Shown here in pieces: positions 27,932-57,409 of a DNA stretch of 58,192 nucleotides. The DNA comes from Candidatus Bathyarchaeia archaeon (lineage in GTDB: Archaea; Thermoproteota; Bathyarchaeia; 40CM-2-53-6), in the NCBI GenBank assembly GCA_049517415.1, contig JBEKSC010000018.1:1-58192 (forward strand). The letters run 5' to 3'. Position numbers and translations under genes: made by a program. Below the pieces are notes generated by a model. It did not search any database, was not told the origin of the DNA, and saw nothing but the letters and a program-made list of their open reading frames with translations. Each line of letters opens with the position of its first letter. The stretch's first letter is position 1.

Positions 27932-28317
27932 CGTTCAAGTAACTTATTACTCCATAACTAACGCTCTAAGATTGCGGTAACGTCCCAAACATCACCTAAG
28001 TTGACCGTCTAATTATCCTGCCTCCGTTCACTGCGAGCCTTGCGAGCAAAAGTCTGGGAAACCCCAAAAACAAATCCGATTAATTATAGCGCACTCAACT
28101 ATGACAAACGCCGTTAAAATTACCCGTTGAGATCTCTAGTTAGCCATCTGTATGTGACCGGTCACTACGCTAGTTCTGTAGGTATACGTCGATTGCGTCC
28201 GCATAGCAGGACGATTAGAGGTATGAACGAGGTCTGTTCGAGGTTCCAGCGGATAAACTAAGCCCTAGGCTCGATCGTAATCTTTCGACACTTCAGGTTC
28301 TTTAGCCACATTACCCA

Positions 28318-28755: not shown

Positions 28756-29374
28756 ATTTATTCGATTCTAACGCTATTCTGTTAATTTATTTGATTTTGC
28801 GTTGAATCCTGAACTAAGGCGATAACGACGTATCAGTAATTTACCTTACTTTAACCGTGGTCTGGATCTCGGGTTGACCATCTGTAAGCCTTCCCTAACG
28901 TTGTAACTTGCTGTAACTGGTTTGTTGTGTTGTTTGTTTTTCTTATTCGACGTGCGAACAATCGAGCGCATATAGGAAGTCGCATTGAGGAAGAGAGGAA
29001 GCCGCATGCGGAGAGAAAGGAAGTCTTACAATGACAGACCGCAGGTACTACTCACAACACATATTCTTACTCTAAGCTAACATCTGGGGGCCTCAGCATT
29101 CCAACAGAATCCAACGTTAACCCGTTAACCGTCAGTCTATCAATAAGAATGGGAATAGATCAACCACCCTAACCTTACCTAAGGATACGAACCAGCACAG
29201 ACCGGTGATTCATCCGTCAAACCCGATTACTACACCACTAGAAATATGACTTGAATACTACTTTGAATGAATGATAGAATAAGTTCCTACTCCTAGTTAG
29301 ACCAGTGTGTTAGCTGTAAGTTAACAGGTTCACCGTTTTATTTAGGATGTATAGGGGAAACGTAGGGGAGCTGG

Positions 29375-30184
29375 TTAAATCGGCTTCGTGTAATTGTGCC
29401 CTAAGATGAACTGGGAAATATTCTTGTAGAGCGGTTCGCTGTTAGATGGATTGTCAGTTATCACAAATCCGTAAGATAGTCGCTGATTTAGTTCTTCGTA
29501 TAAGTCATGGTATTTCTCTGGCGCATAAATGTTACCCGCATATGCGATGGGGATGTGCTCTGCGATCAGTATGCTTGCGGCCTTGGGCTGAGTTCTAACT
29601 GCAACGACTGCTGTTCGAATGTCAAGTTTCCAGCGTAGGCGGGCTATAGATGTTGTTCGGATGAATTCGTCTACCTCCTTTGTTTCGAGTTTGGCACGCC
29701 TATTTTTCACCTGGATGTTTTGGTAGTAGCCATTGGTGGGATGTTTGGCGAATACGTCGATGTCACGACGAGCGATGCCTGGTTCGAGAAGATCCTGAGT
29801 TAGGTGGCTCTTCTTGCGTGTTTCCACCTCAGTATAGCCTAAAGCTTGGCATATCTGGGTTACCAAGTTTTCGCCGTGCAAGCCTATTTCTTCATGAAGG
29901 TCGTAGTGCTTCGCTAGGAGCTGCGCCTTTTCTTGAATTACCTCGTCTATTTGTGTCTGTGAGAAATCTGTACAGTAGATGAACCGTGTCTCGGTCTTTT
30001 CCTCGCTGGGTGTCGTAATCAGCCTTACGGAGACTTTTTTTTCTGCCTGAAGCTGACGGATAGCTGGGTCAACAACTGTAGGCGGACATGTGAGGGCCTG
30101 GATGCGGTTGTTGAGTTCTTCTAGCTGGCATGCGACCTGGCTCTGTAGTATCTGTAGAACTAGGTTCGCTTCGGGTGACCTCAT
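29375..30184 (-). CDS. PD-(D/E)XK nuclease, Mrr/type IV restriction-like
   Basis: G..GENLV..I...LGY...DIDVFA...IQVKN. Confidence 0.72.
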   Translation of the reverse strand: MRSPEANLVLQILQSQVACQLEELNNRIQALTCPPTVVDPAIRQLQAEKKVSVRLITTPSEEKTETRFIYCTDFSQTQIDEVIQEKAQLLAKHYDLHEEIGLHGENLVTQICQALGYTEVETRKKSHLTQDLLEPGIARRDIDVFAKHPTNGYYQNIQVKNRRAKLETKEVDEFIRTTSIARLRWKLDIRTAVVAVRTQPKAASILIAEHIPIAYAGNIYAPEKYHDLYEELNQRLSYGFVITDNPSNSEPLYKNISQFILGHNYTKPI

Positions 30185-30592
30185 GGCGTTGCGCCCGATG
30201 GTTGCGGTTGTTGCTGTATCGGCTGTTGGTGAGAAATTACTACGGGCAAAGTAAAAGTAATCGATATTTCCTATTGAATTACCATCTGGCTACCAAAAGG
30301 GCCAGACGCAACGATTCCTGCCGATTTAAGCTTAACCGTGCAGAATCAGCCTCTGATTGGCGTCGACACTCACAACTCATACAAATTAACACCCAATTAC
30401 ATTAGACGGTTAGTGGAGTTATTAGAACACTAGACTAGCTATCGGTACAGTATACCTTTGTGTACTCAATGGAATAGAAGTATACAGACATCGTGTAGGA
30501 CAACCTTAGTAACGATAAAGGGTTGGTTTTAGGCCGTTTTTGGGTACCCATAAGGGTGTTAGATAGTCCCTGAATACGGTTTAGGTTAATGG

Positions 30593-31501
30593 TTATTGAC
30601 CGAGCACATGTTTTTCGTTCGTAAGGCGATTCCATATGTTGCGGCGCCCCGTTGCACCTCGCATGATTGGGTGGTCTCTGCTGTAATAGGTCGGTAATGG
30701 TGTTTGTTGGGGTAATTTTGTTGAATGGAAGTTGCGTTTCAGTGATTCTTTCAGCCATGCGCTGAGAGTCTTCCTCAGTTTCGTTTCAATATTTTTGGGG
30801 AGTTGTTCTCCAGGCTTCAGGTCGTAACCTAACTGGTATACTCTGAGACCAAGTCGCTTGATCCGCCATAGGATTTTGTCATTCTCACTCGTGGAAGCGG
30901 GTATGAGTCCAAGCTTACGCTTTTCTTCAAGCTCATGAGCTACGTCCGGCGCCATGGTTTTGTGAGTGTGTGGGATTCTCTCTGCTTTTGCTGTGAAACC
31001 GAATGTCGGCTGAATTAGAATTTTGATAGCGTTAGGAAAAGAATTTCTGAAATTTGCTTCCCAATTCTCCACGCTGAGCAGTTTGGGAACGTCAGTTGCC
31101 TTTACCCTGAGGAATCGTCGCATTACGTCTCTATCGAAAACCCAAGCTTTGTTCCATCGGTACCCTAAGTTGTAGTTCTTCAGTTCAACAGCCATAATCG
31201 GTACATTGGTCCAACTAGGAGGTATTCCTTCCCAATCTGATTCGGTCCAGATTTTGTGGCAAAGAACCAAATCGGGTTGCCTGTATGTTATTATCCTCTC
31301 GCCCTCATCGTCGGTGTAGCTAGACTTAGGCACTTGACTATTCCAGAAAAGATAGATAGTGCCATGACCGACCCAGACCTTGCCAAAATTGGTGGACTCT
31401 TCTTTGCCTGGCGTGCGCATCTGCAACTGCAGAATTTTCAGAAAGGTCTGATATGTTGCCTCTTCGAGGGTAAGTCCCTTTAACTGCTTATATGATGGCA
31501 T
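30593..31501 (-). CDS. Putative PD-(D/E)XK nuclease
   Basis: G..LEE...QPDLVL...AVELKNY. Confidence 0.62.
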   Translation of the reverse strand: MPSYKQLKGLTLEEATYQTFLKILQLQMRTPGKEESTNFGKVWVGHGTIYLFWNSQVPKSSYTDDEGERIITYRQPDLVLCHKIWTESDWEGIPPSWTNVPIMAVELKNYNLGYRWNKAWVFDRDVMRRFLRVKATDVPKLLSVENWEANFRNSFPNAIKILIQPTFGFTAKAERIPHTHKTMAPDVAHELEEKRKLGLIPASTSENDKILWRIKRLGLRVYQLGYDLKPGEQLPKNIETKLRKTLSAWLKESLKRNFHSTKLPQQTPLPTYYSRDHPIMRGATGRRNIWNRLTNEKHVLGQ

Positions 31502-31721
31502 AGTTGAGAACTGGCTTGTAGACTAAATTAGGTTAAGTTATCCATACCGAGCTGGAGCGAATTAGCGGGACTCCAAATGTGGGTGCCGAGGCAGTACGAC
31601 TATTCCCACCTTGTAGGCGTGGCCGAAAGCCGACAATAAGCAAACGGATCTGAGCTGAGTTAATGTAAGGCAGGTCAAGAACCGGGAATCAGTCATATGC
31701 AAGTAAAGCTAATTTGGGGGC

Positions 31722-32447
31722 GTGAGGCGTAAGATGGCAAACAACCCGAAGACGAGTTTCGATTACGTAGCAGAAATCCGCAGCGTTTGGAAAATTGCCT
31801 CCGATGCGATATCACTTCAATTCACTTATGACCCGACTCTCGGATTCGCAAGGACGACGAGAAAACGGGTACGTGACGGGGGCATTATGGCCGAGGTGAG
31901 CGCGCCAGATACAAATGACTACGAGACTATTGTTTTCCACGAGGGGGCTCATGTCTATTTAATGACATTGAACTATCCCGCCGTGTTAATCGAGCGGAGC
32001 CCCACCTCTATGTTCGACTGCTACGACTTTCTCAATGAATACTATACAATCACGCTTGAGCTGGAGAAGACGGACTCAAATAAGCAGGCCCGAGCAGCGA
32101 CAGTCAAGAAACGCATGATGGACATTCTCAACACGAAGTGGATTCTATTTGAACGTACGGCTTACAATGCAGCAGTGTACATTCGTGTCTTAGAGGACCT
32201 GGGAGAGCCCAACCAAGACCTTAGAGATTTACTTTTCAAAAAGATATGTGATTGGAAAGGACCAGAGGCACTGTCCGTCTTTAGATCGTTATTCTTCGAG
32301 GTCTTGAAGATATTAGAAGCTGCCCCCAGAATCCAGAACCGAAGATTCAGTGACATCGAAGCCGCAGAAATAACTGAGTTGTTAAATCGTGCATGCAGTA
32401 TAGTGTATCAAGGAACATGCAAGCTGATGCCCCCCGACCTAGTTTGA
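31722..32447 (+). CDS. HEXXH zinc-metallopeptidase-like protein
   Basis: TIVFHEGAHVYL plus downstream NEY. Confidence 0.6.
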   Translation: MRRKMANNPKTSFDYVAEIRSVWKIASDAISLQFTYDPTLGFARTTRKRVRDGGIMAEVSAPDTNDYETIVFHEGAHVYLMTLNYPAVLIERSPTSMFDCYDFLNEYYTITLELEKTDSNKQARAATVKKRMMDILNTKWILFERTAYNAAVYIRVLEDLGEPNQDLRDLLFKKICDWKGPEALSVFRSLFFEVLKILEAAPRIQNRRFSDIEAAEITELLNRACSIVYQGTCKLMPPDLV

Positions 32448-32836
32448 GGTGTAATATAATTCGGTACTATCTTAGGTGATGAAATAAGATTACTTCCCAA
32501 CCGTAAGAGGCACCGAGAATTCGGACATACTACGGCTTGTTGACTCGCCCTGCAACAGGTCTTTCTATGCTTGAGCGTTGGTCAAGCGTAACTTGGATAA
32601 ACCTGCTCAACATTGCCTTTGGAATCTACACCCAACAAGGCTAATCCTAACTTATCAAAAACCTTAGAGTCAATATCCTTAGCCGACCGTAAGGTCGTAA
32701 CCATCGCTACTTGGTCGTACCGTAGGCTAATGCTTCCGCTAATTGTCCTATGCCCCTCGTAACATCATCCCGTGGGGTTTTCAGTTCTAGAGCCGTCTTC
32801 CAGCCTTCGCCAGGAACCTCGCCGTCTATCGCCACA

Positions 32837-33076
32837 TTACCTAATCTTATCGAACGCATCTGCTATCCAACAAAAGCATAAGGCCAGAAGAGGCAAGCCG
32901 AATATCCACACAACACTGATGAGATTCTGTGTCGAATCGTCAGGTCGGTTTGGGGAGTAACTCCAAGTGCCAAGGAACATAATCCCGAAAGCCCAGATGA
33001 AAAAAAATAAAGCCACGGCTGCTCCCTTCCAGGTCCATTTGATTTCTACGTCTCGTCCCAACGAGTTAACCGGCAA
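32837..33076 (-). CDS. Small 2-TM membrane protein
   Basis: Two hydrophobic helices. Confidence 0.55.
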   Translation of the reverse strand: MPVNSLGRDVEIKWTWKGAAVALFFFIWAFGIMFLGTWSYSPNRPDDSTQNLISVVWIFGLPLLALCFCWIADAFDKIR

Positions 33077-33354
33077 AGAATGAGCTCATTCAATAAAATT
33101 AAACTATTCACATTCGCTAGTCCAAATCTCACTTTCCTCGCTTACAGATACTAGTTGGCATTCTCCACAATCAGATAACCAGAGGATGACGGTGTGGTCT
33201 AACAGTCAGTGAATTGTGAAAGTAGAATTACTTAAAGTGGGAGAGAAGGCTGAAGCTAATTGTCGGATATGTTATGCTACAAGAAATCGTGGCACTAAGC
33301 TCTTAGCTCTCTCGTAAGATTGCTTAACAATAAGTTCATAGCGATTTATTGGGT

Positions 33355-34659
33355 TCACTTGCTCATTTTCCAGAGGCCTAATATAATGCTGAAAAATCCG
33401 AATACAAGTCCAGCCTGCATCCACCAGGTAAAGGAGGGTGGCGAGGAGGGAAGATACGGAAACTGTTGGTAATTGAGCTGATAAAAATACTCCTGCCCAT
33501 ACCAGCCGATAGCTACGACCAAGACCAAAGCTATGCCAGCAAGTAATTGACTAATCCCTTTATCCCAATCCCATATAGACCTCTTTTTCTGCATGTGTAT
33601 CGCTGGTTGAAGCGTAGTCTTCTGAAGTGGGCTAACCCGTCCTTCTTCGACAGGAACGGAACGGCTCACCAATACTCCTTGACCACGAGTAGGAGGTGGT
33701 TCAGGAATTCTCTGGTCAACGCTACGCTTTATTGGTGGTCTTCTGCTGCTCCGTGTTAGCATAAGGAACATGATTCCACCTAATATTCCAAACTCCAGAG
33801 CTGTTAGAGTCACAAACTCAATTGAACTAAGTCCAAACTGCGTGTACGGTGGGACTACGTAGGTCTGATATGTCGTGGAAGAATAGACTATGCTACTGTA
33901 TTGCGTCCCCAAGGATTGATTTGTAATTTGCAGCTGAGAAGTACTATAGCTGCACAATTGCTGAGAGCCGTGCCCGTTTGCCTCCAAAGAGCATGATGTT
34001 ATTGTGGAAGAGATAGTGTTTGTCGAAAACGAAGTATACGCATAGGGTGAAGTGGATGAAACAACCCCCACATCAGAAGTTACCTGCCCCACTGACGGGT
34101 AGACAAGATAGAGCGAGGTGGCTACTGCAATTACGAGGACCAGCAGCAGCAAGAGGAGCGCCATTCTTGGTTTCAATACGACAAATGCCGTCAAAAGAGC
34201 CAGAATGCCGATCACCACAACAGCCAGTGTGGTAAACAAACCGTCGGTTAATCCGAGAGCAGCAGACGCAGGCACAAGGCTTGTTGAACTCTCCGTCCCT
34301 AAACTAGTCGCTGTGTAATTTGATGTCAGCTGATAAGAAGTTGTGCGTGTGCTCCATATCACGTTAAAAGTGGTGCCCGTTGCATATTCGGTATTATAAA
34401 CGAAGCCGCCACCACAAAGCAATTGCCAGCAATTCGGTTCATAGTATTCAGCATTAACTCCTATGATGTACGTAGTTGTCGTTAGACTGTCACTCAATTC
34501 ATCGACAGTAGTCGGAATAGTTGCAACCTGAAGTAGAATGGATTGCTGAGTTATCGTCTGGGTTGTGCTCATAGGAACTTCTTGGTAGGCGAGACCTGCG
34601 AACGCTAAGATTGCCACTGCGAGAAGTAGACCTGTAACCATAGCCGGTTTTGGTATCAC
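33355..34659 (-). CDS. Multi-TM protein with two tandem S/T-rich extracellular modules
   Basis: Two units of TM, Thr-rich Cys-pair region and VP....GL...F..L...GIL TM; two more TMs at C-terminus. Confidence 0.75.
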   Translation of the reverse strand: MIPKPAMVTGLLLAVAILAFAGLAYQEVPMSTTQTITQQSILLQVATIPTTVDELSDSLTTTTYIIGVNAEYYEPNCWQLLCGGGFVYNTEYATGTTFNVIWSTRTTSYQLTSNYTATSLGTESSTSLVPASAALGLTDGLFTTLAVVVIGILALLTAFVVLKPRMALLLLLLVLVIAVATSLYLVYPSVGQVTSDVGVVSSTSPYAYTSFSTNTISSTITSCSLEANGHGSQQLCSYSTSQLQITNQSLGTQYSSIVYSSTTYQTYVVPPYTQFGLSSIEFVTLTALEFGILGGIMFLMLTRSSRRPPIKRSVDQRIPEPPPTRGQGVLVSRSVPVEEGRVSPLQKTTLQPAIHMQKKRSIWDWDKGISQLLAGIALVLVVAIGWYGQEYFYQLNYQQFPYLPSSPPSFTWWMQAGLVFGFFSIILGLWKMSK

Positions 34660-34846
34660 TGGATTTAACCAGCGAACTATAATGCAACTCGGTGCGTTTG
34701 GAATTAATTCTTTTCTATATGTTTGCTAATCATCGAACGGCTAAAGCCGCCTTACTCGGTAACTTAAGCCGTTAACTTATTTCTGGTTTAGCCGAACTCG
34801 TCCCCTGATTTAATTAAGCCTAATCTGAGCAACCGTTCTGTGCTAG

Positions 34847-36130
34847 TTACTTTCTTCGTTTCTTAACCTTGACTCTACCAACTTTCTTCAGTTGCTTAGC
34901 TTTTCGTCTAACAACCTTCCCTGAGGGGAGCTTTAGCTTCGGTTTAGGTGCTTCTACGGATGGTTCGGGCTGCAAGTTCTTACTAATGTATAACTGGTTA
35001 ATGTGTTCCCTCGTGTACTTGTTACTGCCACATTGAGGACATTTGAAGTGGTCTAAATCATCTTCCGGCCCCAACTGATAGCCGCACCTATCGCAGGTTA
35101 CAAGGTACATACCTAACTTCTGGGTTACGAGGTTCGTCAAGCCTTTTACCATCGATTCTAACTCTTCGATCTTCCTGTCTCTAGCCTCAAGTTCCGTTGT
35201 TGTTGCTACGCTAGGGCCGTAAATTACTTTAATTCGATTCCACAGCCAACTTTCATCGCGATAGCATTTGTTATAATTTTGCGCATCGAGTCGGTGGCCG
35301 AGGAAGAATTCACTTACGCTATCGTTCACGTCCAAGTGGGTGCAGTAAGTTTTGAACGTGTCCCGTAGTTCATGTAGGCTAGGCTTAGTGCCATTGAATG
35401 GCGGAATTGGAGCCCTAACTAATGCGGTTCGCCAAGCGCCTTCAAGGGCTGCTTTAGCGGTAACGTAATGTTGAACATTCAATGGTGCCCCCATCTTCCC
35501 TGACTTCTTAACAGTCCGGAACGGTAACTGCACGCCTGAATTCAATATGTCCCTAAGAACCGTTAACGGAATTAGACTATAGAATTTCTTCCTGTTACTT
35601 TTACGGCCGAGAAAGCCGACCCTGAAATATTCCTGAGTCGGATTAGCTTGAATGAACGCTCTAATGGCCGCCCATGATTCGTCACTGTTGAATTGGAGGA
35701 ATTGGGTTAACCCCCAGCCGTTCAGAAGCATGAGCCGCAAAATCAAATTGAAGGGCTTACTTGCCGAATTACATACGGCTTCGGCCTGCTGCCAAGTCAG
35801 GCCCGTTTCTTCCTTAACGTTACCGGGCAAACCAAGTTTAGGTTCAGGTAAATTGAGGATGCCGTTATACTCTAACCAGGATTTCAAAGAGTACATGGCA
35901 TGGTTGCGGCCCCGTTCCCCATGCCTCACCCCGTTCTGGTCCACACGCACAATGCTGCCTGCAAGCTGCTTAGCTTTCACCCACAATTCAACGGGGTTAG
36001 CTTTAGCTGCCGCCACAACGTCGCTAGATGACATCTCCATTAATTTGAGTAGACGCTTAAGGTAAGCTGAGTAAGTTATTCGAGTGGATTCTTTAAGGGA
36101 TTGACGCCATAATTCGAATGTGTCAGTCAT
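34847..36130 (-). CDS. Tyrosine recombinase/integrase with C-terminal zinc ribbon
   Basis: KESTRITY..YL N-domain; LHELRDTF, FFLGH, YNKCY; CDRC/CPQC tail. Confidence 0.88.
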   Translation of the reverse strand: MTDTFELWRQSLKESTRITYSAYLKRLLKLMEMSSSDVVAAAKANPVELWVKAKQLAGSIVRVDQNGVRHGERGRNHAMYSLKSWLEYNGILNLPEPKLGLPGNVKEETGLTWQQAEAVCNSASKPFNLILRLMLLNGWGLTQFLQFNSDESWAAIRAFIQANPTQEYFRVGFLGRKSNRKKFYSLIPLTVLRDILNSGVQLPFRTVKKSGKMGAPLNVQHYVTAKAALEGAWRTALVRAPIPPFNGTKPSLHELRDTFKTYCTHLDVNDSVSEFFLGHRLDAQNYNKCYRDESWLWNRIKVIYGPSVATTTELEARDRKIEELESMVKGLTNLVTQKLGMYLVTCDRCGYQLGPEDDLDHFKCPQCGSNKYTREHINQLYISKNLQPEPSVEAPKPKLKLPSGKVVRRKAKQLKKVGRVKVKKRRK

Positions 36131-46737: not shown

Positions 46738-47064
46738 CTAAGCGCGGGCTTTCTTCGGTTGAACGATGTAGTAGTTTTCGTCCACATCAATTTCCAGGTC
46801 GGGAACGAAAGACAGGACGAACTCGATTAGTTCATCCATGCTGCGCTTACGCCTCTCTTTCAACTGGAGAAATCCCTGAAGGCTTACCAATCGCTCATAC
46901 ATGTCGGAGCTAATCTTTATGCTGCGGCTTAGGCGCCTTTTCTTCCCTCGTTCGATACTTCTTGACACTAGTTCTCCCTTGTAGAAATGTGGAACGTTCG
47001 GCCTTTTTTTATTTTTCCTCCAACCATCGCCATATTGGTAAGACCGTGGTTGATGGGGGGTCAC
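46738..47064 (-). CDS. Ribbon-helix-helix-like protein (start uncertain)
   Basis: RSIKISSDMYERL...SMDELIEFVL. Confidence 0.6.
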   Translation of the reverse strand: MTPHQPRSYQYGDGWRKNKKRPNVPHFYKGELVSRSIERGKKRRLSRSIKISSDMYERLVSLQGFLQLKERRKRSMDELIEFVLSFVPDLEIDVDENYYIVQPKKARA

Positions 47065-47244: not shown

Positions 47245-48810
47245 ATGGGGCTATCGGTAAGTTCTTCAGTTCAGTCGGTCAAGTTTCACCAAAGAAAACC
47301 GAGGTTCGAGATGTTGGAGCAACTGCGGCGCCTGGTTCAGGAACTTGCGTTGGCAGGATACCAACTCGACCGTTCAGCGTATGATTATCTTAGGTCGATG
47401 AACGAACTTGACGCGACAAGGTTCGCTAAGAACCTCCTGATAACGATAGGTGAAACTCCTGAAGCGGGACGAATTCTTACCAAGGAAGAATTGCTGGAAC
47501 TCACTGAGCCACCGCAGGCGCTTCAAATGCCCATCCCAGTCTCAACGACCATTCCGGCAAAGCAAATGTCCTCGAGGCTAGAAATCGTAAGGGACCCTTC
47601 CAAAGAGATCGGAACAGGCGGCAGCATCGATGATTTCTCACACTACTTCCGAGATAGATTCCACAAGTTGTCATCTGCCTTTCGTGATCGATACGATGCA
47701 AGGGACGCAACAACCGTCGCCGATGCCCTAGCCGCCGAACAAAATCATAAAGTGAAATTTCTAGCCATGGTTATGGAGAAACGCGAACGACAAGAGAAAC
47801 TCTTCTTACAAATCGACGACCTAGAGGATTCAGCCACAGTACTCGTCTCGGCCGACGCCCGAGGAGCTTACGAAGTGGCGCAGAAGACCCCCCTCGATCA
47901 AGTGATCTGCGTTTCCGGGTTACGGGCGAAAGGTGACTTAATCGTTGCAAAGGAGATCTTACTTCCCGACATCCCTGACCACAAGCCACACCTCGCCGAC
48001 GAGGAGGTTTGGGCAGTGCTGCTCTCAGACCTGCATGCCGGCAGCAAGAAGTTCCTCGGGGCTGAGCTCGCTAGGGTTTTCGATTGGTTGAACCTGAAGA
48101 TCGGCGGCCCCGACCAACGAGCAATTGCTGAACGAACCAAGTACCTAGTCATCTGCGGGGACATCGTCGACGGAATCGGAATATACCCACGCCAGGAACA
48201 GGAATTGGCAATCGTAGACCTCTATGAACAGTATCATGAAGCCGCAAAATACGTGAGCAGGATACCTGAACACATTGAGACGGTTGTCCTTCCAGGAAAC
48301 CACGACCCAGTGAGACAGGCGCTGCCGCAACCTCCCATACCCAAAGACTTCGGGGAACCTCTCTATGAGTCACGCAATCTAATTTCTCTAGGCAACCCTG
48401 CCGAGGTTTCAATGCATGGAGTCAAGCTTCTACTTCACCACGGCCGCAGCCTCGACGACATCATCACGAGCGTTCCCAACATTGACTTCACGCAACCCGA
48501 GAAGGCGATGAAACTTCAACTGCAATGCCGGCACTTAGCCTCGGAGTACGGGAACAGGACGGCCATAGCCCCCGAGAAAGTCGACCACCTAACCATTGAA
48601 AATATACCTGACATTTTCCAATCAGGTCACATACACGTAGTCAAATACGAAAACTACCGAGGCACGCAAATCATCAACTCAGGAGCCTGGCAAGCCCAAA
48701 CTGACTACCAACGTCGAGTCGGCTTGGTTCCGACACCTGGCATCCTCACGGCGGTCAACCTACACACGCTACAGGTACGATTGATGAACTTCATGGAAGC
48801 TTCACCATAG
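47245..48810 (+). CDS. polB: DNA polymerase D small subunit DP1 (start may be 47311)
   Basis: YFRDRF, SDLH.GS, GDIVDGIGIYP.Q, PGNHD, GHIH, NSGAWQ.QT. Confidence 0.96.
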   Translation: MGLSVSSSVQSVKFHQRKPRFEMLEQLRRLVQELALAGYQLDRSAYDYLRSMNELDATRFAKNLLITIGETPEAGRILTKEELLELTEPPQALQMPIPVSTTIPAKQMSSRLEIVRDPSKEIGTGGSIDDFSHYFRDRFHKLSSAFRDRYDARDATTVADALAAEQNHKVKFLAMVMEKRERQEKLFLQIDDLEDSATVLVSADARGAYEVAQKTPLDQVICVSGLRAKGDLIVAKEILLPDIPDHKPHLADEEVWAVLLSDLHAGSKKFLGAELARVFDWLNLKIGGPDQRAIAERTKYLVICGDIVDGIGIYPRQEQELAIVDLYEQYHEAAKYVSRIPEHIETVVLPGNHDPVRQALPQPPIPKDFGEPLYESRNLISLGNPAEVSMHGVKLLLHHGRSLDDIITSVPNIDFTQPEKAMKLQLQCRHLASEYGNRTAIAPEKVDHLTIENIPDIFQSGHIHVVKYENYRGTQIINSGAWQAQTDYQRRVGLVPTPGILTAVNLHTLQVRLMNFMEASP

Positions 48811-48947: not shown

Positions 48948-49571
48948 TTAGTTTCCGTCTGTTTGCGTGGTCAAAGCACTGAGGCCGCGAGCCAGGATGC
49001 CGGCGACTCGGACGGGTTCGGGTAATCTGGAAATTATCGCTGCAGATGCGATTGTTTTCTTGGCGAATGAGGGGCCGGCACCATTCACTTCGAAGTATAG
49101 TTTGGGTTCTTGCGGAAGCGGTTTGAAAGCGTAGAGGCGTCCAGCATTTCGAACTATGTGCCAGCGTTCTTCCCAATCGCTGAAATGTTTTCGCAAAGCC
49201 CGCAGGACGGCTGGGTTGTCCGGCTTCTGTCTAGTGATAGCAATAACTGGCTTCCGCGTGGATCGGGCGAGTTGCTGGATGTCGACGAGGTTGAACCCTC
49301 CGAAGGAAATGCCGGAAAGCATCACAACGTCAAACCGCAAGTTCTTGAGAAGAGAGTTTAGAACGCGGTTGGCGTCCCTCCCATCAACCCCTATGCGTCC
49401 GAGTGTGACATCGGAAATCATTGAGCCCTGGAAGAGTATTGCGACTAGGAGAGCGCTTTGCTTCGCTGTCCTAATTGCTGGAATTGCGCCGTCGTCCACT
49501 CCAACAATTCTCAAGTTAGGGTTGGTGTTTCTGGAGGGACTTCGGGACATATCCGAAGAGTCGGCCTGCAA
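48948..49571 (-). CDS. DUF99-family protein (endonuclease dU)
   Basis: VGVDDG, VDGRDA, GISFGGFN, PEPVRVA. Confidence 0.88.
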   Translation of the reverse strand: MQADSSDMSRSPSRNTNPNLRIVGVDDGAIPAIRTAKQSALLVAILFQGSMISDVTLGRIGVDGRDANRVLNSLLKNLRFDVVMLSGISFGGFNLVDIQQLARSTRKPVIAITRQKPDNPAVLRALRKHFSDWEERWHIVRNAGRLYAFKPLPQEPKLYFEVNGAGPSFAKKTIASAAIISRLPEPVRVAGILARGLSALTTQTDGN

Positions 49572-50760
49572 GATTGTCCTCGGCGTAGGTGTCTGTGATC
49601 ACTCGCGGTGAGATGCCTAGTCTTATCTTCTTGGTGCGGCCATACCGGCCGAAACTCACCACGCGTGCATTCAGTATCCCCAGCACGTCCAATTCGTTGA
49701 TCAGCCCGCTTACTCTACGCTGCGTTAGGGGTTCCAGGTCGCTGTGTGAACAGAGTTCATGGTAGACCTCGTATACGTCCCCCGTAATTGCGCCCGCGGG
49801 AAGGTTGTTGCTGAGCAGGAAGGCGCTTACTAAGAGTATCTTGGAATGCGCTGGAAGGGACTTCAATACCTCTGACACGCGGTCGTGTTCAATTTTTTGT
49901 TGCGCCGTACGAACATGTTGTTCCACGATGTGTGTGGCGCCTTCACGTTCCGCCAATTCTCCAGCCACTCTAAGCAGGTCCAAAGCACGCCGAGCATCAC
50001 CATGCTCCCCAGCCGCGAGAGCTGAGCAAAGCCTCAGGGCGTTCTCATCAAGGCGGTCGTTAATGAAAGCCAGTTTAGCGCGGTCCATCAAAATATCGAA
50101 TAGCTCATTCGCCAGGTATGGCCGAAAGACCACCTCCTCTTCACTTAGAGAACTAAGCACCCGCGGATCCAGAAATTCCTTGAAATGAAGATCGTTCGAA
50201 ATTCCCACGATGCTAATCCAAGAGGAGTTCAAGCTCTCATTGATTCTCGTCAACTCGTAGAGTAGCGAATCGTCCGCGCTATGCTTTATGAGGGCATCAA
50301 TCTCGTCCAAAGTGACCAGCAACGCAGTGCGGTCCGCATTTATCCCACTACAGAACCGGTCGAGCAACTCACCGACCGCAATCCCCGTGAAGGGCACCTC
50401 CACGCCAACAGCCCTACATATCTCAGCAAGCACCCGGTAATTCGTTCCAGCCAAACGGCAGTTTATGTAAGCAATCCTAACCGGCGCTCCAATCTCTGTC
50501 GCTTTCTTCTCAAGTTTGTCAAGCACAAACTTCGTGACAATTGTCTTGCCGGTGCCTGTCTTACCATAAACGAACACGTTCGAGATCTTCGACTGCTGAA
50601 GTGCCGGAGCTAGCATACCGGCCAAGCGCTGAATATGTTCGTCCCTGTGAGGTAGGTGACTGGGCATGTAATCGTGGCGTAACACATCACGGTCTTCGAA
50701 AATGTTCGCAGTCGAGAGATATTTATCAAACAGAGTCTCCATAACATCTACGGTTGGCAT
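49516..50760 (-). CDS. cdc6: Orc1/Cdc6 replication initiator
   Basis: GKTGTGKT, LDEID, GDARRALDLLR, GRYGRT. Confidence 0.97.
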   Translation of the reverse strand: MPTVDVMETLFDKYLSTANIFEDRDVLRHDYMPSHLPHRDEHIQRLAGMLAPALQQSKISNVFVYGKTGTGKTIVTKFVLDKLEKKATEIGAPVRIAYINCRLAGTNYRVLAEICRAVGVEVPFTGIAVGELLDRFCSGINADRTALLVTLDEIDALIKHSADDSLLYELTRINESLNSSWISIVGISNDLHFKEFLDPRVLSSLSEEEVVFRPYLANELFDILMDRAKLAFINDRLDENALRLCSALAAGEHGDARRALDLLRVAGELAEREGATHIVEQHVRTAQQKIEHDRVSEVLKSLPAHSKILLVSAFLLSNNLPAGAITGDVYEVYHELCSHSDLEPLTQRRVSGLINELDVLGILNARVVSFGRYGRTKKIRLGISPRVITDTYAEDNLAGRLFGYVPKSLQKHQP

Positions 50761-50917: not shown

Positions 50918-50946
50918 CCCCCTCACCCCTGCACTTCCACTCGAAG
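50918..50946 (-). promoter_or_regulatory. ORB element 1
   Basis: Minus strand CTTCGAGTGGAAGTGCAGGGGTGAGGGGG. Confidence 0.8.
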
Positions 50947-51102
50947 TGTAGTTATGGTTGGGGGTGTTTTTGTTGTTGTTAGAAAGAAGTCATTGGTGTT
51001 AATGCTTTTCGGGACTATAGCGTAACGCGTTTATCCAATTGTATAATCTGCTCTAATTTCCATATTCTAGTGGTTGGAGGATTAATGCATACTTCAAGGC
51101 TT

Positions 51103-51131
51103 GTCCAGTCGAAATGAAGGGGTTAGGGGGG
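51103..51131 (+). promoter_or_regulatory. ORB element 2
   Basis: GTCCAGTCGAAATGAAGGGGTTAGGGGGG. Confidence 0.88.
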
Positions 51132-51188: not shown

Positions 51189-51211
51189 AACCCCTCTATT
51201 TCCACTGTAAG
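51189..51211 (-). promoter_or_regulatory. ORB element 3
   Basis: Minus strand TTACAGTGGAAATAGAGGGGTT. Confidence 0.85.
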
Positions 51212-51278
51212 CACAAAATTGCTACTAGAACTCTATGGATTAGATGGTCCACAATTAAGTTCAACTTATTACATGTGA

Positions 51279-51692
51279 ATGATTAACCGTGTGGCTCCTA
51301 TGAAGAAGCGTATCAAACTAGAATTCTTCGATCGCCACGGCATGAAACATAGCATTGCAATTGAAGGTGAAGTTACAGCCGACAAAGTCAACCACTTGCT
51401 CGAATATGCTGAGATCGTTGCCGGCTCAAATGAGAGAGCCCCATTACTCCCTGGTACCCAGGATAGTAAGATGGGTAGATTGTTGGACGTGATCAACACA
51501 CGGTTAGTGGATCGTAGCTTTGATTCACGTGAGATTTTGCAAGCTTACAGGGAAGCTTGGGGGGATGATTTTACGCTCGGCGCGGTATCAACCTACCTGT
51601 CTCGTTTGGTTGATCGGGGAACGTTGGAGAGGACTGGTTCGGCTTCCCACTGGTTCTATAAGCTTAAGCCTTCGCCGACTCTTTCTCCGTGA
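51279..51692 (+). CDS. Uncharacterised protein with C-terminal wHTH
   Basis: FDSREI..AY...LGAVSTYLSRLVDRG.LER.G. Confidence 0.8.
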   Translation: MINRVAPMKKRIKLEFFDRHGMKHSIAIEGEVTADKVNHLLEYAEIVAGSNERAPLLPGTQDSKMGRLLDVINTRLVDRSFDSREILQAYREAWGDDFTLGAVSTYLSRLVDRGTLERTGSASHWFYKLKPSPTLSP

Positions 51693-52401
51693 CCTCCGTC
51701 CCCGCGGGCTGCAAGGCAGAACGGGCCGTCTCGCTCAACTTATACCTAAACGGGGCTCGGTTTGATTCTCGGTCCACATACCCTTCCAAATACAATTTCT
51801 TCATCAACCGCGAGGTGTGCTCCCTCGACTTCCTTAGTCGTTGCCCTAGTTCGGGCGCCGCCTTCGAGCCTTCAACGTTCAAAATCATGAGTGTCTCACG
51901 CTCCGTAGGTGTCAGTGGGGACAGGATGTCTCCTTCACTGACGACGCCAGCTAGGTTCATGCGTTTAGCGGGGGGATGGGCCACTGTTCCTACGGGTGGT
52001 AGGGAGGCGAACCTAGCTTTCAAGTTCTCAAGGTCGACTACGAGGCGTTTATCATTGCTTAGGACTTCTTCGAGGCGCTTGAACACCTGAAGGTTGGACG
52101 AGCGAAGTTCCGCCTCCTCCCATTCCACCCCACCAATGCGCGTTTTCAAGCCGTCCATCTCAGTCTGCGCTTGGCTGAGCACGAACTCGGATTGCGCAAT
52201 GCGGGACGTAAGGGCGTCCACGATTACGCTGATGATTGAGGCTGATTCCATGAGCGCCTGCTTACTTTGTTTGAAGGCGTGGACGGCCTTGGTTGCTATT
52301 AGGAGGAGGATTACAAGGACGACGGCGGAAACTGCGTCCACGGCGATTATGAAGGGATCCAAGGTTGATGTGTAGTTGCCGATTAGGTATTTCAGTCTCA
52401 T
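51664..52401 (-). CDS. Membrane-anchored coiled-coil wHTH protein
   Basis: N-terminal TM, heptad-like middle, LTPTE...SREHTSRLMKKLYLEGYVDR...PFRY. Confidence 0.82.
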   Translation of the reverse strand: MRLKYLIGNYTSTLDPFIIAVDAVSAVVLVILLLIATKAVHAFKQSKQALMESASIISVIVDALTSRIAQSEFVLSQAQTEMDGLKTRIGGVEWEEAELRSSNLQVFKRLEEVLSNDKRLVVDLENLKARFASLPPVGTVAHPPAKRMNLAGVVSEGDILSPLTPTERETLMILNVEGSKAAPELGQRLRKSREHTSRLMKKLYLEGYVDRESNRAPFRYKLSETARSALQPAGTEVTEKESAKA

Positions 52402-52408
52402 TTACACG

Positions 52409-52614
52409 TGTGATGTCACAATGGTTGTTTGACGTCACAATGATAACGCGGTGATGAAAGTATGATGCACTCATGTCACAGCCTCAGGAAAATAAGGCCG
52501 CTATAGCTGGATAGAGCTGAGAAAGACTCATTTTTAGCCTTTCACAATGTTTGACTTCATTATCGTGATGTTGGGTGGATATCAGAAGTTCGATGGATAT
52601 CACGTGATGTCACA
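52409..52614. repeat. Cluster of TGA(T/C)GTCACA boxes
   Basis: TGTGATGTCACA 52409, TTTGACGTCACA 52428, CTCATGTCACA 52470, CGTGATGTCACA 52603. Confidence 0.7.
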
Positions 52615-52630
52615 TTGACACATTGAATTC

Positions 52631-53086
52631 TTAGACTTCAAGAGTATCCTTGAAGCTCTGACGTTTGGCTAGGGCGGAAATGCTGTCGCGAAGCCTTTGG
52701 TTCAGTTGTTCGATGGCCTCGTGGTCTGTTTGACCAATTTGTCTAGCTTGTTGGATATAGTCTTGAATTGTGTCGGAGAGTTCCGTGAAGGGTTGAAGAG
52801 AGGGCGTATCGAAGAGCCCTACGTACCCGAGCAGAAGAATGGTGTAAATTGAGCGGATTACATTGTTTTGGGCTTGAATTAAGGTCCGATTATAGGCGCC
52901 ACGGCTGACACGTTTCCCGGATGGCCTGAACAGCCGCCTATGGGCCTTCAATGCCCCTTTTTCGCTAGAGAGAGAGTCGGCGAGAATTGTTTCTAACTGA
53001 GGGAGAGTCAGTTGGCTAGTTCGGAGAAGCAGCTTTGTAACGGGATCGCCGAGCGTATCACGAATTGAGGCACGAGCCTCTGACAC
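52631..53086 (-). CDS. Uncharacterised HTH-like protein (start inferred at GTG 53086)
   Basis: SQLT..QLET...VSRGAYNRTLIQAQNNVIRSIYTILLLGY. Confidence 0.75.
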   Translation of the reverse strand: MSEARASIRDTLGDPVTKLLLRTSQLTLPQLETILADSLSSEKGALKAHRRLFRPSGKRVSRGAYNRTLIQAQNNVIRSIYTILLLGYVGLFDTPSLQPFTELSDTIQDYIQQARQIGQTDHEAIEQLNQRLRDSISALAKRQSFKDTLEV

Positions 53087-53359
53087 CGTATCGGGATGGT
53101 CGGACGTATGAACGGCCTCATGGATACGATTTTGTATTCGCTTAAGGCTTTTTCGACAACGTGGACCCACCTTTCTTGGCACTGTTTGGCACCACCCCTT
53201 GATGGGTGGATCCACCCTCTCCGCGGCGAAGCTATCACGGAGAAATTGTCCCATTTCGCGATGCTCCATTCTGCAATGGTGATGTTGAGCGTCATGGAAT
53301 CTGCAATCTTGAAATACGGCGGGATTCATGTCGCCTCCTCGCAAAGAAGGGGATTCTAG

Positions 53360-53623
53360 TTGGGTAGGCGCAGAAGAAGGGTCATCAAGGTAGTCAAGAA
53401 GAAACTTCCATCCGTTTTCACTTGCCCCTCATGTGGCGAGGAATCAATACGCGTCAAACTGCCCCAGGGGCCCGGCCCTGCCATCGTTCAATGCGGCGCA
53501 TGTGGACTCAAACGTGAATTCGAGGCCACACCGTCCAGCCAGATTGTCGACATATATTGCATGTTCACGGACTCCTATTACTCAAAAGAGAAACCACCCG
53601 AACCCCCTCAGCAAACGTCGTAA
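53360..53623 (+). CDS. elf1: Transcription elongation factor Elf1
   Basis: MGRRRR...LPSVFTCPSC...CGACG...VDIY..F.D. Confidence 0.9.
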   Translation: MGRRRRRVIKVVKKKLPSVFTCPSCGEESIRVKLPQGPGPAIVQCGACGLKREFEATPSSQIVDIYCMFTDSYYSKEKPPEPPQQTS

Positions 53624-53710: not shown

Positions 53711-56700
53711 ATGGCAGCAACTATTCTCAGCGAGCACGATGCGTATTTCCAACGTCTCAAAGAAGAGTTGGATGAAATTTACGATCTTGCTAGGCAGGCG
53801 AGGGCAAAAGGGCTCGACCCTTCACAAGAACCCGAATCCGTACTGACCCATGATGTCGCAGAGCGTGTCGAGAAAGCAGTTGGCCCAGTTGGAGTATCGT
53901 CCCGAATTCGTGAACTCTCGCATGTCATGCAGCGCGAGCTCGTCGCGCTCAAAATTGCTGAGGAAATTGCCCTCGGTAAGTACGGAGGCATAGATGAAGG
54001 GGCAGCGGAGCAAGCTGTGCGGACCGCTTCAGCCATACTAGATGAGGGAGTGACCGCGGCGCCGATAGAGGGGATCTCTAGCGTCCGCATTAGAGCAAAC
54101 CAAGATGGGAGCAGGTATCTTGCAGTCTACTTTGCCGGCCCCATAAGGTCCGCCGGCGGCACCGATATGGCTCTTATTCTCGTGATCGCCGATTACGTTC
54201 GCCATCAGCTCGGCTTGGGTAAGTACAAGGCTACGGAACTTGAAGCGAAACGATTCGTGGAAGAACTCCGCATCTATGAGAGAGAAGTCGCCCGTTTTCA
54301 ATTCAAAGTCTCGGATGAGGAGTTGTTCAACGCCATCATGCGGCTGCCGGTGGAAGTTAACGGAGTTGAAACAGACCCTGTCGAGGTGAGCGCGTACCGA
54401 AATGTTCCGAGAGTAGACACAAACAGGGTCAGGGGTGGGGCGCTCAGGGTCGTTCACGATGGTTTGATTGGGAGAAGCCACAAGGTACTGAAGATTGTAG
54501 ACAGTCTCGGTATCGAAGGGTGGAGTTGGCTGAGGGAGATCAAGCCCCCAGTCGCTGAGGCGGAGGAGGCGCGTGAGTTCATGTTTATGGAGGATGTCCT
54601 CGCAGGCCGGCCGATATTCTCCTTTCCACAGTTTACAGGAGGCTTTAGGCTCAGGTATGGGCGGGCCCGAAACACAGGGCTTGCGGCCATCGGGCTACAT
54701 CCATCAACTATGCTGGTCCTTGGAAAGTTCATAGCAGTTGGAACGCAGCTGAGGCTTGAGAAGCCAGGAAAAGCGGGAATAGCTGCGACGGTCGACTCCA
54801 TCGAACCCCCAATCGTGAAACTGAACGACGGATCCGTTGTAAGGCTCTCCGACCCTAAGCAAGCCGAAAGACTGCTTGATTCGATCAGCCAAATCCTTTT
54901 CCTCGGTGACATTCTTGTGGGATTCGGAGAATTCCTTGAGAACAACCGCCCCCTGCTACCATCGGGTTTTGTTGAAGAATGGTGGCGTGAACTCGTTAGG
55001 ATTGAAGCTGCGAACTACGGCGGCCTTGAGGGCTTCGCGAAACATGTCGGTGTGAATGGAACCGAATTAGTAGGTTGGGTTGCAGACTCAGGTGGAACCA
55101 TCCCAACCGCCGAGAACGCGCTGGGCATCGCGAGACACTCAAAAATACCGTTACACCCGAGGTACACGTACTTCTGGGAGAATATTGCCCCCCAAGACTT
55201 CGACAAGTTACGCTCTAGGCTGATGGACAAGGGCCAAACAGACGCCTCCCCTGCACGAATCGTGACTAGGAAAGAACCCCTAATCAAGGCTATTCTTGAG
55301 AACCTCTGTATCCCCCACAAAGTCAACGGCGAGTCCATTGTAATCGAAGAGGAGGCGCCCATACTGTACGAATGCCTCGGCCTGTCTTCGTCCGCGAAAC
55401 CACTTGACGGTGGAGATGTCTTCCAAAAAATCGCCCAAGCATCGGCCATACAAGTGATGAAGAAGGCCCCGGTTTACGTTGGCGCTAGGATGGGCCGGCC
55501 GGAAAAGGCAAAACGGCGGGAAATGCGGCCAATGGTACACTGCCTCTTCCCAGTGGGGTTGGCTGGAGGTCCAAGGAGAAGCATCGTTGAGGCGGCGACG
55601 GAGCATTCTGTTATTTCGGTCGAAATAGCGTATCGTAAATGCGGCAGATGCGGCAACATAACTCACCTCAATTTCTGTGAAAGATGCGGCGAGAAGACCG
55701 CGAAAGTCTTTGTCTGCCCGAAATGTGGCGCTGAGGGCGCCAACCAGATCTGCCCCAACTGTCGGAGCACTTCGCGTGCGTACACCGAGAGAAGTGTGCC
55801 GCTAAGAGACTTGTTGAATTCAGCAGAAAGAAAGCTCTCCTTGACAGTGATTCCTGAAGCTGTTAAGGGAGTGCGGGGCTTGACTAACGATGCTAAAGCC
55901 CCAGAACCCCTCGAGAAAGGTCTCCTACGGGCGAAACATGACGTATCGGTCTTCAAAGATGGGACGGTTCGCTTTGACGCAACCAATGCGCCCCTCACAC
56001 ACTTCAAACCGGCCGAGATAGGCGTTGAGGTTGAGAAACTTCAAGCGCTAGGGTACAACTTGGACATGAACGGCGAACCCCTCAAGTCGGCCGAGCAGTG
56101 CTGCGCTCTCAAAGTGCACGATATCATAGTGACCGAACAATGCGGCGACTATTTCGTTAGAGTTGCAAAGTTCCTCGACGAACTACTACAAACCTTCTAC
56201 GGCCTACCCGCATTCTACCAAGCAAGAACAAGGCAGGACATAGTCGGCCAATTAGTCGTTGGCCTATCACCCCACACCTCAGTTGGAGTCATAGGCCGCA
56301 TAATCGGTTACACTCGCGCCAGCGTCTGCTTCGCGCACCCCTTCTGGCACGCTACCAAGCGCAGGGATTGTGACGGTGATGAGGACTCAGTTAGCTTGGC
56401 TTTGGATATCTTGTTGAATTTCTCCAGGCAGTTTCTGCCTTCAAGGATTGGGGGTATTATGGATGCGCCGCTCTTGTTGTCGGCGGCCATCAAGCCCAGC
56501 GAGATCGCACGCCAGGCCTTCAACCTTGAAACCGTCCAGCGCCTACCGTTGAAGTTTTTTGACGAGACGCAGACTCGTGCGGATCCGAAGGCGTTGACGG
56601 AGTTGATTGAGACGGTGCAGAAGAAACTTGGCTCCGACGCCGTCTTGGGATCGCTTGGGTTCACGCATGACACGCATGACTTTAACAGCGGAAACTTGGA

Positions 56701-57127
56701 AAGCGTGTACAAGAAGCTTGGATCGATGGTCGACAAGGTAACCCTGCAACTCAAGCTCGCTGAGTCAGTTAAGGCGGTGGCAGCGGGGGAAGTTGCGAAA
56801 CGCGTTCTCTCGACACATTTCATGCGAGACTTAACCGGAAATCTGAAGGCATTCGCGAGTCAGCGGTTCCGCTGCACCAAATGTAATGCGAAGTTTCGAA
56901 GGATACCGTTAAAGGGCGCTTGCCCTCGTTGCGGCGGCAAACTATCCCTAACCGTCTACAGGGGCAGCGTGGAAAAATACTTGACCGTAGCGCAAGATCT
57001 GGTCAAGCGATACAATCTAGGCAAATACCATGAACAGCGCCTACTCCTCCTCCATGAGGAAATTAATTCACTCTTCAACGAACCGGAGGAAAAGAAGAAA
57101 CAACCCACACTCGCGCAGTTTGTGTGA
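53711..57127 (+). CDS. polC: DNA polymerase D large subunit DP2
   Basis: FAGPIRSAGGT, RLRYGR, RMGRPEK, KRRDCDGDED, C-terminal Zn finger, QPTLAQF PIP-like tail; no intein. Confidence 0.97.
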   Translation: MAATILSEHDAYFQRLKEELDEIYDLARQARAKGLDPSQEPESVLTHDVAERVEKAVGPVGVSSRIRELSHVMQRELVALKIAEEIALGKYGGIDEGAAEQAVRTASAILDEGVTAAPIEGISSVRIRANQDGSRYLAVYFAGPIRSAGGTDMALILVIADYVRHQLGLGKYKATELEAKRFVEELRIYEREVARFQFKVSDEELFNAIMRLPVEVNGVETDPVEVSAYRNVPRVDTNRVRGGALRVVHDGLIGRSHKVLKIVDSLGIEGWSWLREIKPPVAEAEEAREFMFMEDVLAGRPIFSFPQFTGGFRLRYGRARNTGLAAIGLHPSTMLVLGKFIAVGTQLRLEKPGKAGIAATVDSIEPPIVKLNDGSVVRLSDPKQAERLLDSISQILFLGDILVGFGEFLENNRPLLPSGFVEEWWRELVRIEAANYGGLEGFAKHVGVNGTELVGWVADSGGTIPTAENALGIARHSKIPLHPRYTYFWENIAPQDFDKLRSRLMDKGQTDASPARIVTRKEPLIKAILENLCIPHKVNGESIVIEEEAPILYECLGLSSSAKPLDGGDVFQKIAQASAIQVMKKAPVYVGARMGRPEKAKRREMRPMVHCLFPVGLAGGPRRSIVEAATEHSVISVEIAYRKCGRCGNITHLNFCERCGEKTAKVFVCPKCGAEGANQICPNCRSTSRAYTERSVPLRDLLNSAERKLSLTVIPEAVKGVRGLTNDAKAPEPLEKGLLRAKHDVSVFKDGTVRFDATNAPLTHFKPAEIGVEVEKLQALGYNLDMNGEPLKSAEQCCALKVHDIIVTEQCGDYFVRVAKFLDELLQTFYGLPAFYQARTRQDIVGQLVVGLSPHTSVGVIGRIIGYTRASVCFAHPFWHATKRRDCDGDEDSVSLALDILLNFSRQFLPSRIGGIMDAPLLLSAAIKPSEIARQAFNLETVQRLPLKFFDETQTRADPKALTELIETVQKKLGSDAVLGSLGFTHDTHDFNSGNLESVYKKLGSMVDKVTLQLKLAESVKAVAAGEVAKRVLSTHFMRDLTGNLKAFASQRFRCTKCNAKFRRIPLKGACPRCGGKLSLTVYRGSVEKYLTVAQDLVKRYNLGKYHEQRLLLLHEEINSLFNEPEEKKKQPTLAQFV

Positions 57128-57136
57128 GATGATAGC

Positions 57137-57409
57137 ATGCCAAAGGCCCCTGCGTTCCATCCCAAAGCCTTCCTAACATCGAAAAGGAACGTCAAGGCCG
57201 GACTAATTTCCCGTTCGAAAATCTTGGTCGTTCTTGAGAGGGAGCGGAAAAGCGCGAGCGCCATAGCGAAGGAAGCTTCTCTATCATACGAATGCGTCAT
57301 GTACCATCTGAAGGCGTTGAAAAAAGAACGGTTAGTAGACAAGCTGACCAAGACGAAGCCATTCACGTGGGGGTTTACACCATTTGGGCAACAGAAGCTG
57401 CCCACCTAA
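57137..57409 (+). CDS. Small wHTH protein
   Basis: SRSKIL..L...SASAIA...LSY..V.YHL..L. Confidence 0.75.
   Translation: MPKAPAFHPKAFLTSKRNVKAGLISRSKILVVLERERKSASAIAKEASLSYECVMYHLKALKKERLVDKLTKTKPFTWGFTPFGQQKLPT

Follow-up and report, generated by a model that had tools for sequence, protein, structure and literature searches.

The locus and its three genes

The stretch of DNA analyzed here, contig C18 of a 2.65-Mb bathyarchaeal genome (58,192 nucleotides, in the following called the window), contains a predicted replication origin with three origin recognition boxes (ORBs) and, directly beside it, three small genes named A, B and C. These genes form a conserved origin-flanking module, in which each gene is accompanied by a DNA motif of its own, termed alpha, beta and gamma, respectively. 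The boxes are located between cdc6 and gene A and account for three of the five genome-wide matches to a strict ORB pattern. An inverted pair of them flanks an AT-rich spacer and adjoins orc1/cdc6, a layout that is common across the loci compared, and the spacer is presumed to be the unwinding element based on PMC12141716. In close relatives, of which only three were obtained from the single-protein search, the ORBs stand out as conserved islands. An earlier reading made from the sequence alone had placed ORB boxes beside the trio and the trio between cdc6/DP1 and elf1/DP2. Both statements hold true, the latter by Pfam matches for Cdc6, Endo_dU, the DP1 domain and Elf1. The name DP2 is our assumption from sequence features plus the position of the gene. 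In the window, gene B converges on gene A (Table 1).

For gene A, the sequence-only reading had named a winged helix-turn-helix (wHTH) protein, and a C-terminal winged helix is indeed predicted by the structure model (predicted local distance difference test, pLDDT, of 81) and by a fold search, in which many winged helices matched about equally (Z of 8 to 11). In addition, weak Penicillinase_R matches were obtained for 17 of the 39 gene A members, the best with an E-value of 2e-5. The true start of the gene is probably the ATG at 51300, because the ATG at 51279 is missing in three close relatives.

The architecture that had been read for B, a transmembrane (TM) segment followed by a coiled coil and a wHTH domain, was likewise recovered. 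The protein comprises a hydrophobic stretch with a mean Kyte-Doolittle value of 3.06 over 19 residues, a heptad periodicity, and a winged helix with MarR/TrmB-like matches that lie below the Pfam cut-off. Among the homologues of B (n = 72 after removal of one TM-less row, the second L165 match, which is a different protein), the predicted TM helix is present in 51 proteins from 24 families, and all 51 carry two to six K/R residues downstream of it. The heptad score exceeds that of the shuffled sequence in 63 of 65 homologues, and the spacer between the TM helix and the winged helix has a median length of 119 residues (range 24 to 172). Compared to the helix and coiled coil, with mean column identities of 0.25 to 0.31, the winged helix is better conserved (0.66). 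The segment N-terminal to the helix is too short and therefore leaves no room for a sensor domain. The homologues in Nitrosopumilus, including that of N. maritimus, are annotated only as winged-helix or MarR proteins.

As to the third gene, which had been called HTH-like, its conservation was confirmed, while its helix-turn-helix (HTH) was not: no Pfam, PDB-sequence or clear fold match was found, the best fold match (Z of 6.8) lying on a helical hairpin. A weak atlas lead (score 0.80) points to a cluster in which 14% of the members carry Sigma70_r4, and C may also resemble Tfx. C is probably an HTH-type autorepressor. A longer open reading frame (ORF) of 237 aa for C, starting at 53344, was discarded, since the homology starts near 53086.

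Table 1. Coordinates of the origin, the three genes, their motifs and the neighboring genes in the window
Feature	Position	Strand	Basis or remark
ORB1, left box of inverted pair	50926..50945	-	pattern scan; kept in relatives
Spacer within the inverted ORB pair (presumed unwinding element)	50946..51102		layout common across loci; role by comparison with PMC12141716
ORB2, right box of inverted pair	51103..51122	+	pattern scan; kept in relatives
ORB3	51191..51210	-	pattern scan; stays with gene A where cdc6 and the ORB pair relocate
Alpha motif TTACATGTGAA, upstream of gene A	51269..51279	+	array degenerate in this genome
Gene A	51300..51692	+	130 aa; predicted N-terminal beta-beta-alpha domain and C-terminal winged helix; ORF can start at 51279
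Gene B	51664..52401	-	245 aa; short N-terminus, predicted TM helix, coiled coil, MarR/TrmB-like winged helix
Predicted TM helix of B (near residues 17-37) with basic residues behind it	52291..52353	-	hydropathy
Beta palindrome 1, perfect	52409..52420		8 bp upstream of the B ATG
Beta palindrome 2, one mismatch	52428..52439		upstream of B
Beta palindrome 3, perfect	52603..52614		just downstream of the C stop
Gene C	52631..53086	-	151-aa all-helical protein, no known family
Gamma palindrome, ATACA-N4-TGTAT type	53124..53137		upstream of C; best position weight matrix (PWM) match in the genome
PolD small subunit DP1 (context)	47245..48810	+	Pfam DNA_pol_E_B and Metallophos
Endo_dU family endonuclease (context)	48948..49571	-	PF01949, E 1e-45
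orc1/cdc6 initiator	49516..50760	-	Cdc6_C, Cdc6_lid and AAA families
elf1 (context)	53360..53623	+	PF05129
PolD large subunit DP2 (context)	53711..57127	+	ORF; name presumed from sequence features and conserved position

Motifs and distribution of the module

The three DNA motifs are an addition to what the sequence-only reading had described. The beta palindrome (YGTGAYRTCACR, 12 bp) occurs in the spacer between B and C, which holds both perfect copies of the 2.65-Mb genome. All three sites, which span about 0.3 kb and lie about 1.3 kb from ORB2, are kept in the close relatives while the surrounding spacer diverges. The occurrence of the genes and motifs was compared in a class set of 121 genomes and a phylum set (Thermoproteota) of 201 genomes, for which families and genera are given as codes (f2, g2) and loci as L numbers; 100 loci were picked to span the families and the fetched stretches were mapped. 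At least one perfect beta copy was found in 72 of the 78 B-positive class genomes, compared to 7 of the 43 B-negative ones, and at least two beta half-sites were counted behind C in 56 of the 62 loci that contain B, compared to one of the 18 that do not, although these counts overstate the significance, since kin are not independent. Among the sites listed (75 of 179), 68 fall into 31 B-positive genomes, and the distance to B is at most 1 kb for 56 of these and at most 4 kb for 61. In f31, the sites form a dense though degenerate array, and in f34, where B is present, no array was found.

Gamma shows the simplest pattern. A single site precedes the start of C in 66 of 80 loci, irrespective of the presence of A or B, and in the genome of the window its PWM score of 25.6 compares with 18.6 for the next genomic site. 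The alpha motif consists of TGT(G/T)AA repeats around ORB3. Over 48 loci, its sites reach a density of 1.5 per 100 bp to the left and right of ORB3, compared to 0.22 in the unwinding element, and to about 0.2 in the left flank. No alpha regulon was detected in the five genomes with A (18 tandem sites genome-wide vs 14 in the control), and tandem sites in genomes lacking A were near the control as well (9 vs 5). A possible resemblance of beta to matS and of alpha to parS carries no weight in the readings given below.

In the class set, A was found in 72 genomes, B in 77 (single-sequence search) or 78 (profile), and C in 92, almost always as single copies. Profile searches of the phylum set yielded A in 133 genomes (one weak), C in 91 and a strong match for B in 116, after 48 of 164 genomes with only weak B-profile matches, of which the rows listed covered the coiled coil only, had been dropped. 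A and B are present in all 30 genomes of f31, where B matches proteins from Nitrosopumilus species including N. maritimus; f32, f38, f39, f44 and f47 gave no strong match to A, B or C. The usual order is DP1, cdc6, the ORBs and A, then B and C on the opposite strand, followed by elf1, GGGP synthase and DP2, and all three genes are together in one fetched locus for 47 of 80 C loci. The origin linkage supposed by the sequence-only reading extends over the class and the phylum, including the Nitrosopumilus-type f31, with f13, f17, f20, f26, f37, f42 and f51 as exceptions.

Gene A tracks ORB3 more faithfully than it tracks cdc6: in 72 of 82 loci, an ORB is found no more than 500 bp upstream of A (9.8% for random windows), whereas cdc6 is within 1.5 kb in 53 of 82. 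In 22 loci, two of which end at a contig edge, A is accompanied by an ORB though cdc6 is not within 1.5 kb. In the genera g2 and g3, ORB3, the alpha repeats and A remain joined, and cdc6 and the ORB pair are relocated. Conversely, three loci lacking A contain neither ORB3 nor the alpha arm, and B becomes the neighbor of the ORBs where A is missing in f6, f12 and f50. In f37, f42 and f51, A or B-C are 13 kb to hundreds of kb away from the ORBs.

Several variations of the neighborhood were observed. In f13, f17, f20 and f26 (L119, L125, L126, L132, L133, L136, L152-L154), A is missing, B-C adjoin DP1, cdc6 is relocated and partly divergent, and an unknown pair of a wHTH-like and a ribbon-helix-helix (RHH)-like gene is located near DP1; replication in these families possibly starts from another type of origin or without an origin. 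The families f12, f14, f29, f35, f48, f50 and f56 (L118, L120, L139, L166-L170, L183, L184, L187, L188, L195) contain, in the origin or next to it, a fourth small HTH-like gene of about 100-125 aa without an NCBIfam match, which is often found between the ORB pair and ORB3; several of them have few alpha repeats. In f15, f28 and f30 (L121, L128, L134, L140, L144), A and B are separated by two genes, one for a HerA-like ATPase (E 1e-14), the other for a 337-aa protein without an NCBIfam match, which is possibly NurA-like. Over L096-L195, GGGP synthase, an enzyme of membrane lipid synthesis, follows elf1 (cluster n0, 19 families), and an XRE-CBS gene is often inserted between C and B (cluster n1, 18 families); neither is found at that position in the window.

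In the window itself, a 108-aa ORF upstream of DP1 (46738-47064), which has no Pfam match and was not recovered in other loci, includes a weak ORB-like match (46850-46869). Directly after DP2, a small ArsR-like HTH gene (57137-57409) occupies a position that is kept in many loci. The region 26000-36130 shows a lower GC content (44-49%), orphan ORFs and a recombinase-like ORF (34847-36130, by eye), which suggests an integrated element.

Interpretation of the module

The best reading of these data is that A, B and C would be three self-regulating, site-specific DNA binders. For B, this reading may be extended to a tether, to which we assign a chance only slightly short of even: by binding the palindromes that precede its own gene, the protein would attach to the membrane a DNA segment located about 1.3 kb from the origin. 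In the proposed mechanism, B would dimerize via its coiled coil, bind two or three of the 12-bp palindromes, repress its own gene and anchor the origin region, which would keep or pull sister origins apart, possibly together with SMC-ScpAB; the genome encodes ScpB. A would bind its ORB3-flanking repeats, which lie outside the unwinding element, and either tune the use of the origin or couple its own expression to the occupancy by Cdc6. C would bind the single operator before its own start and set the transcription heading towards B, and the three proteins need not form one complex. The argument for B is based on a combination of features: since its only visible target is its own locus, and since it combines a predicted membrane anchor and a long spacer with the lack of a sensor domain, the simplest reading is that it keeps this locus in place. 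Provided that B sits in the membrane and occupies the beta sites, the DNA 1.3 kb from ORB2 is tethered by geometry, possibly without this being the function for which B was selected.

The tether had already been proposed by the sequence-only reading, and the proposal stands in part. The linkage of the trio to the origin, the mostly kept architecture of B and the near-confinement of its cognate palindrome to the locus agree with it. However, absence of the TM helix or of origin linkage, named there as grounds for giving it up, does apply to a minority of lineages, and a number of observations weigh against it. The TM helix is absent from 21 of the 72 homologues of B (nine families), and B was not found in 43 of the 121 class genomes, including the whole families f2-f5, f16, f19 and f21. 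The genes of the trio are lost separately, with f2-f5 lacking B and f6, f17, f20 and part of f12 lacking A, and therefore the trio is not an obligate three-part machine. In nine loci of f13, f17, f20 and f26, a TM-bearing B and beta sites occur although the 13-19 kb retrieved contain neither an ORB pair nor cdc6, and in five genomes of this type an ORB pair was not detected, compared to clustered ORBs in 7 of 10 controls, with a strict pattern that misses some families that do have ORBs. In f37, B-C are 13-16 kb away from the ORBs. Alpha sites show no enrichment in the origin region of the window (2 exact half-sites vs 1.8 expected) or in the A-carrying families f35, f48, f49 and f56, and each motif is assigned to its protein by co-occurrence only. 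Finally, the two to three palindromes of B are found within about 0.3 kb beside its own gene, compared to nine sites over about 700 kb given for the staphylococcal protein RicO in 10.64898/2026.03.06.710092.

As noted from the sequence, no ParA/SegA is present in the window, and a canonical ParA query found none in the whole genome, whose five CbiA-family matches are MinD-like, Mrp-like or unrelated. A SegB-like profile of four sequences, which did match both f44 control genomes, found none in this genome either. Canonical ParA occurs in 8 of the 121 class genomes, among them all six with a TM-less B, one lacking B and one with a TM-bearing B, and in 6 of the 201 phylum genomes, five of which belong to f51, a family lacking B, with the gene co-oriented directly upstream of C in four. 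The idea that loss of the TM helix is always compensated by ParA was rejected by the phylum-level families with a TM-less B (f34, f40, f48, f50), in which no ParA was found, a further point against the tether. SegB-like genes (PDB 7DV2 matches, E 1e-3 and 2e-6) were detected in 4 of the 121 class genomes, none with a membrane-anchored B, a weak count in support of the tether, as the four matches are the profile's own building sequences (p about 0.03, with kin not independent). In two of the four, a parA-segB pair is located 0.1 to 4 kb from C. Since these are few events, and most genomes lacking a TM-bearing B have neither system, the occurrence of SegB or ParA where the TM-bearing B is missing is suggestive only; most of the families without B (f2-f5, f16, f19, f21) show neither SegB nor ParA, which again counts against a tether.

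Further loci of interest in this respect are the segAB-like operons of Bathyarchaeia with ParA followed by a SegB homologue (L115:6124-7219, L109:3586-4653, L235:5587-6622, L228:5069-6188), in which the ParA of L109 is split into two frames, and several ParA copies in genus g2 without a SegB partner. In genus g114 of f51 (L189:9632-11283; L223-L227), an operon of a small RHH-like gene, ParA and C converges on A. Elsewhere in the genome of the window, a coiled-coil and HTH gene precedes a MinD-like ATPase and an HTH-like gene precedes a P-loop ATPase (L033:1027-2265 and L035:288-2307).

The observations could also be explained by three autoregulated transcription factors, with B as a regulator that spans the membrane once and may be under the control of membrane state or of proteolysis, the place at the origin timing expression via replication or gene dosage, and tethering being incidental. 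We regard this as quite possible, if short of probable. The place of each motif, ahead of its own gene, resembles that of an operator, as for ordinary autoregulators, which speaks against a dedicated tether. The first beta palindrome overlaps the stop codon of C in 22 of 34 site-bearing spacers with another near the start of B, a geometry that fits looping or a roadblock, and where C and B are separated by an inserted gene, the sites remain at the C end, upstream of the whole unit. The loss of the TM helix in some homologues fits as well, and transmembrane regulators are common in archaea according to PMC10269533. On the other hand, conserved targets elsewhere are lacking: outside the locus, perfect beta sites are at background level among the sites listed, thus no regulon of perfect sites is visible, although degenerate targets would escape the scan. 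Moreover, no other site in this genome comes close to the gamma site in score, the tandem alpha sites found elsewhere remain close to the control, and the B of the window has no downstream gene to regulate.

A control of origin firing, in which A would act around ORB3 in favor of or against Cdc6, and B would prevent re-initiation, rather than segregate the origin, by sequestering it at the membrane after its replication, appears improbable to us. It would account for the density of alpha sites on both sides of ORB3 and their scarcity in the unwinding element and the left flank, for the joint absence of A, ORB3 and the alpha arm in three loci, and for the lack of any ORB match or pair in f17, f20 and f26, which are without A. 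An accessory origin-binding protein is known from Sulfolobus with UBP (PMC12141716). However, the joint persistence of ORB3, alpha and A in g2 and g3, where cdc6 and the ORB pair are relocated, fits better to a promoter role, A is found tens to hundreds of kb away from the ORBs in f37, f42 and f51, and f6 and part of f12 retain a normal ORB pair without A; furthermore, the strict ORB pattern misses ORB-bearing families, and clustered ORBs were found in only 7 of 10 control genomes. The readings as tether, regulators and initiation control are not fully exclusive. Mere hitch-hiking of unrelated regulators without a role at the origin, in a slowly rearranging replication cluster (DP1, cdc6, elf1, GGGP synthase, DP2), would agree with the independent loss of the three genes and with the conservation of GGGP synthase and XRE-CBS genes (19 and 18 families), which have no obvious origin role. 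Since A tracks the ORB in the 22 loci lacking a nearby cdc6 and B takes the place beside the ORBs when A is missing, we consider it very improbable.

Taken further, the tether reading would make B and its palindrome an ATPase-free archaeal centromere-to-membrane tether, which arose independently of RicO, RocS and RacA, was ancestral to Bathyarchaeia and Nitrososphaerota and was replaced by SegAB/ParA in some lineages, while A and ORB3 would couple it to initiation. This extended scenario is rather unlikely. Chromosome segregation in archaea is largely unexplained according to PMC7617429, and SegB has been described for Sulfolobaceae (PMC12139799). No description of the trio was found in the literature searched, though arCOG neighborhood tables in supplements could list the genes, and the module is apparently undescribed so far. 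If the tether reading is true, B is a candidate for how these archaea, including marine ammonia oxidizers, handle their chromosomes. Even if the regulator reading is true, three conserved origin-linked factors with defined operators represent new candidates for archaeal cell-cycle control. With named genes and exact origin DNA motifs in Bathyarchaeia and Nitrosopumilus, direct testing is possible in a cultivated organism.

Comparison with known systems

The winged helix of A shows a weak likeness to the BlaI/MecI/CopY regulators (PF03965), reaching 21 bits compared to a cut-off of 122 for TIGR02698. In BlaI, MecI and CopY the winged helix is N-terminal and the dimerization domain C-terminal, whereas the model of A places the winged helix C-terminal behind a beta-beta-alpha domain. 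With the domain order reversed and a family-level profile match not reached, A was rejected as a member of this family.

As a candidate only, A can also be compared to UBP and its motif ucm in Sulfolobus islandicus, an accessory protein with a short motif at a three-ORB origin. According to PMC12141716, UBP binds inside the unwinding element via beta-hairpins, which form a saddle fold, and has more than 300 genomic sites. A differs from it by the winged helix predicted for its C-terminal domain, by a motif outside the unwinding element and by a gene that adjoins the origin.

The repeated sites directly upstream of the gene of the presumed binder are a feature that B shares with SegAB/segS of Sulfolobales (PMC12139799) and with ParABS. 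However, neither a ParA ATPase nor a SegB homologue was found in the locus or the genome, and B combines a winged helix with a predicted membrane helix; the locus is not a SegAB or ParABS system. With one predicted TM helix and a DNA-binding domain, B fits the definition of a transmembrane transcription regulator, while it differs from these regulators, as described in PMC10269533, by the lack of an extracellular sensor region, the long coiled-coil spacer, the fixed place beside the origin and the lack of a visible regulon.

The closest likeness of B in design appears to be to RicO of Staphylococcus aureus and RocS of Streptococcus pneumoniae (PMC11500499, PMC13042908, 10.1101/359943). Its chain, like theirs, would unite a DNA-binding domain with a coiled coil and a membrane anchor, as predicted from the sequence of B. 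The order is reversed, with an N-terminal predicted TM helix in B compared to a C-terminal amphipathic helix. Unlike the sites of RicO, which are scattered across hundreds of kb in the origin region, the perfect beta sites, to which the scan was limited, are restricted to the locus. RicO binds its origin-proximal sites, termed ricS, and works with SMC (10.64898/2026.03.06.710092). Like RicO, B has a dedicated sequence motif near the origin, the co-occurring beta palindrome, and B may be likened to RicO and RocS by its architecture.

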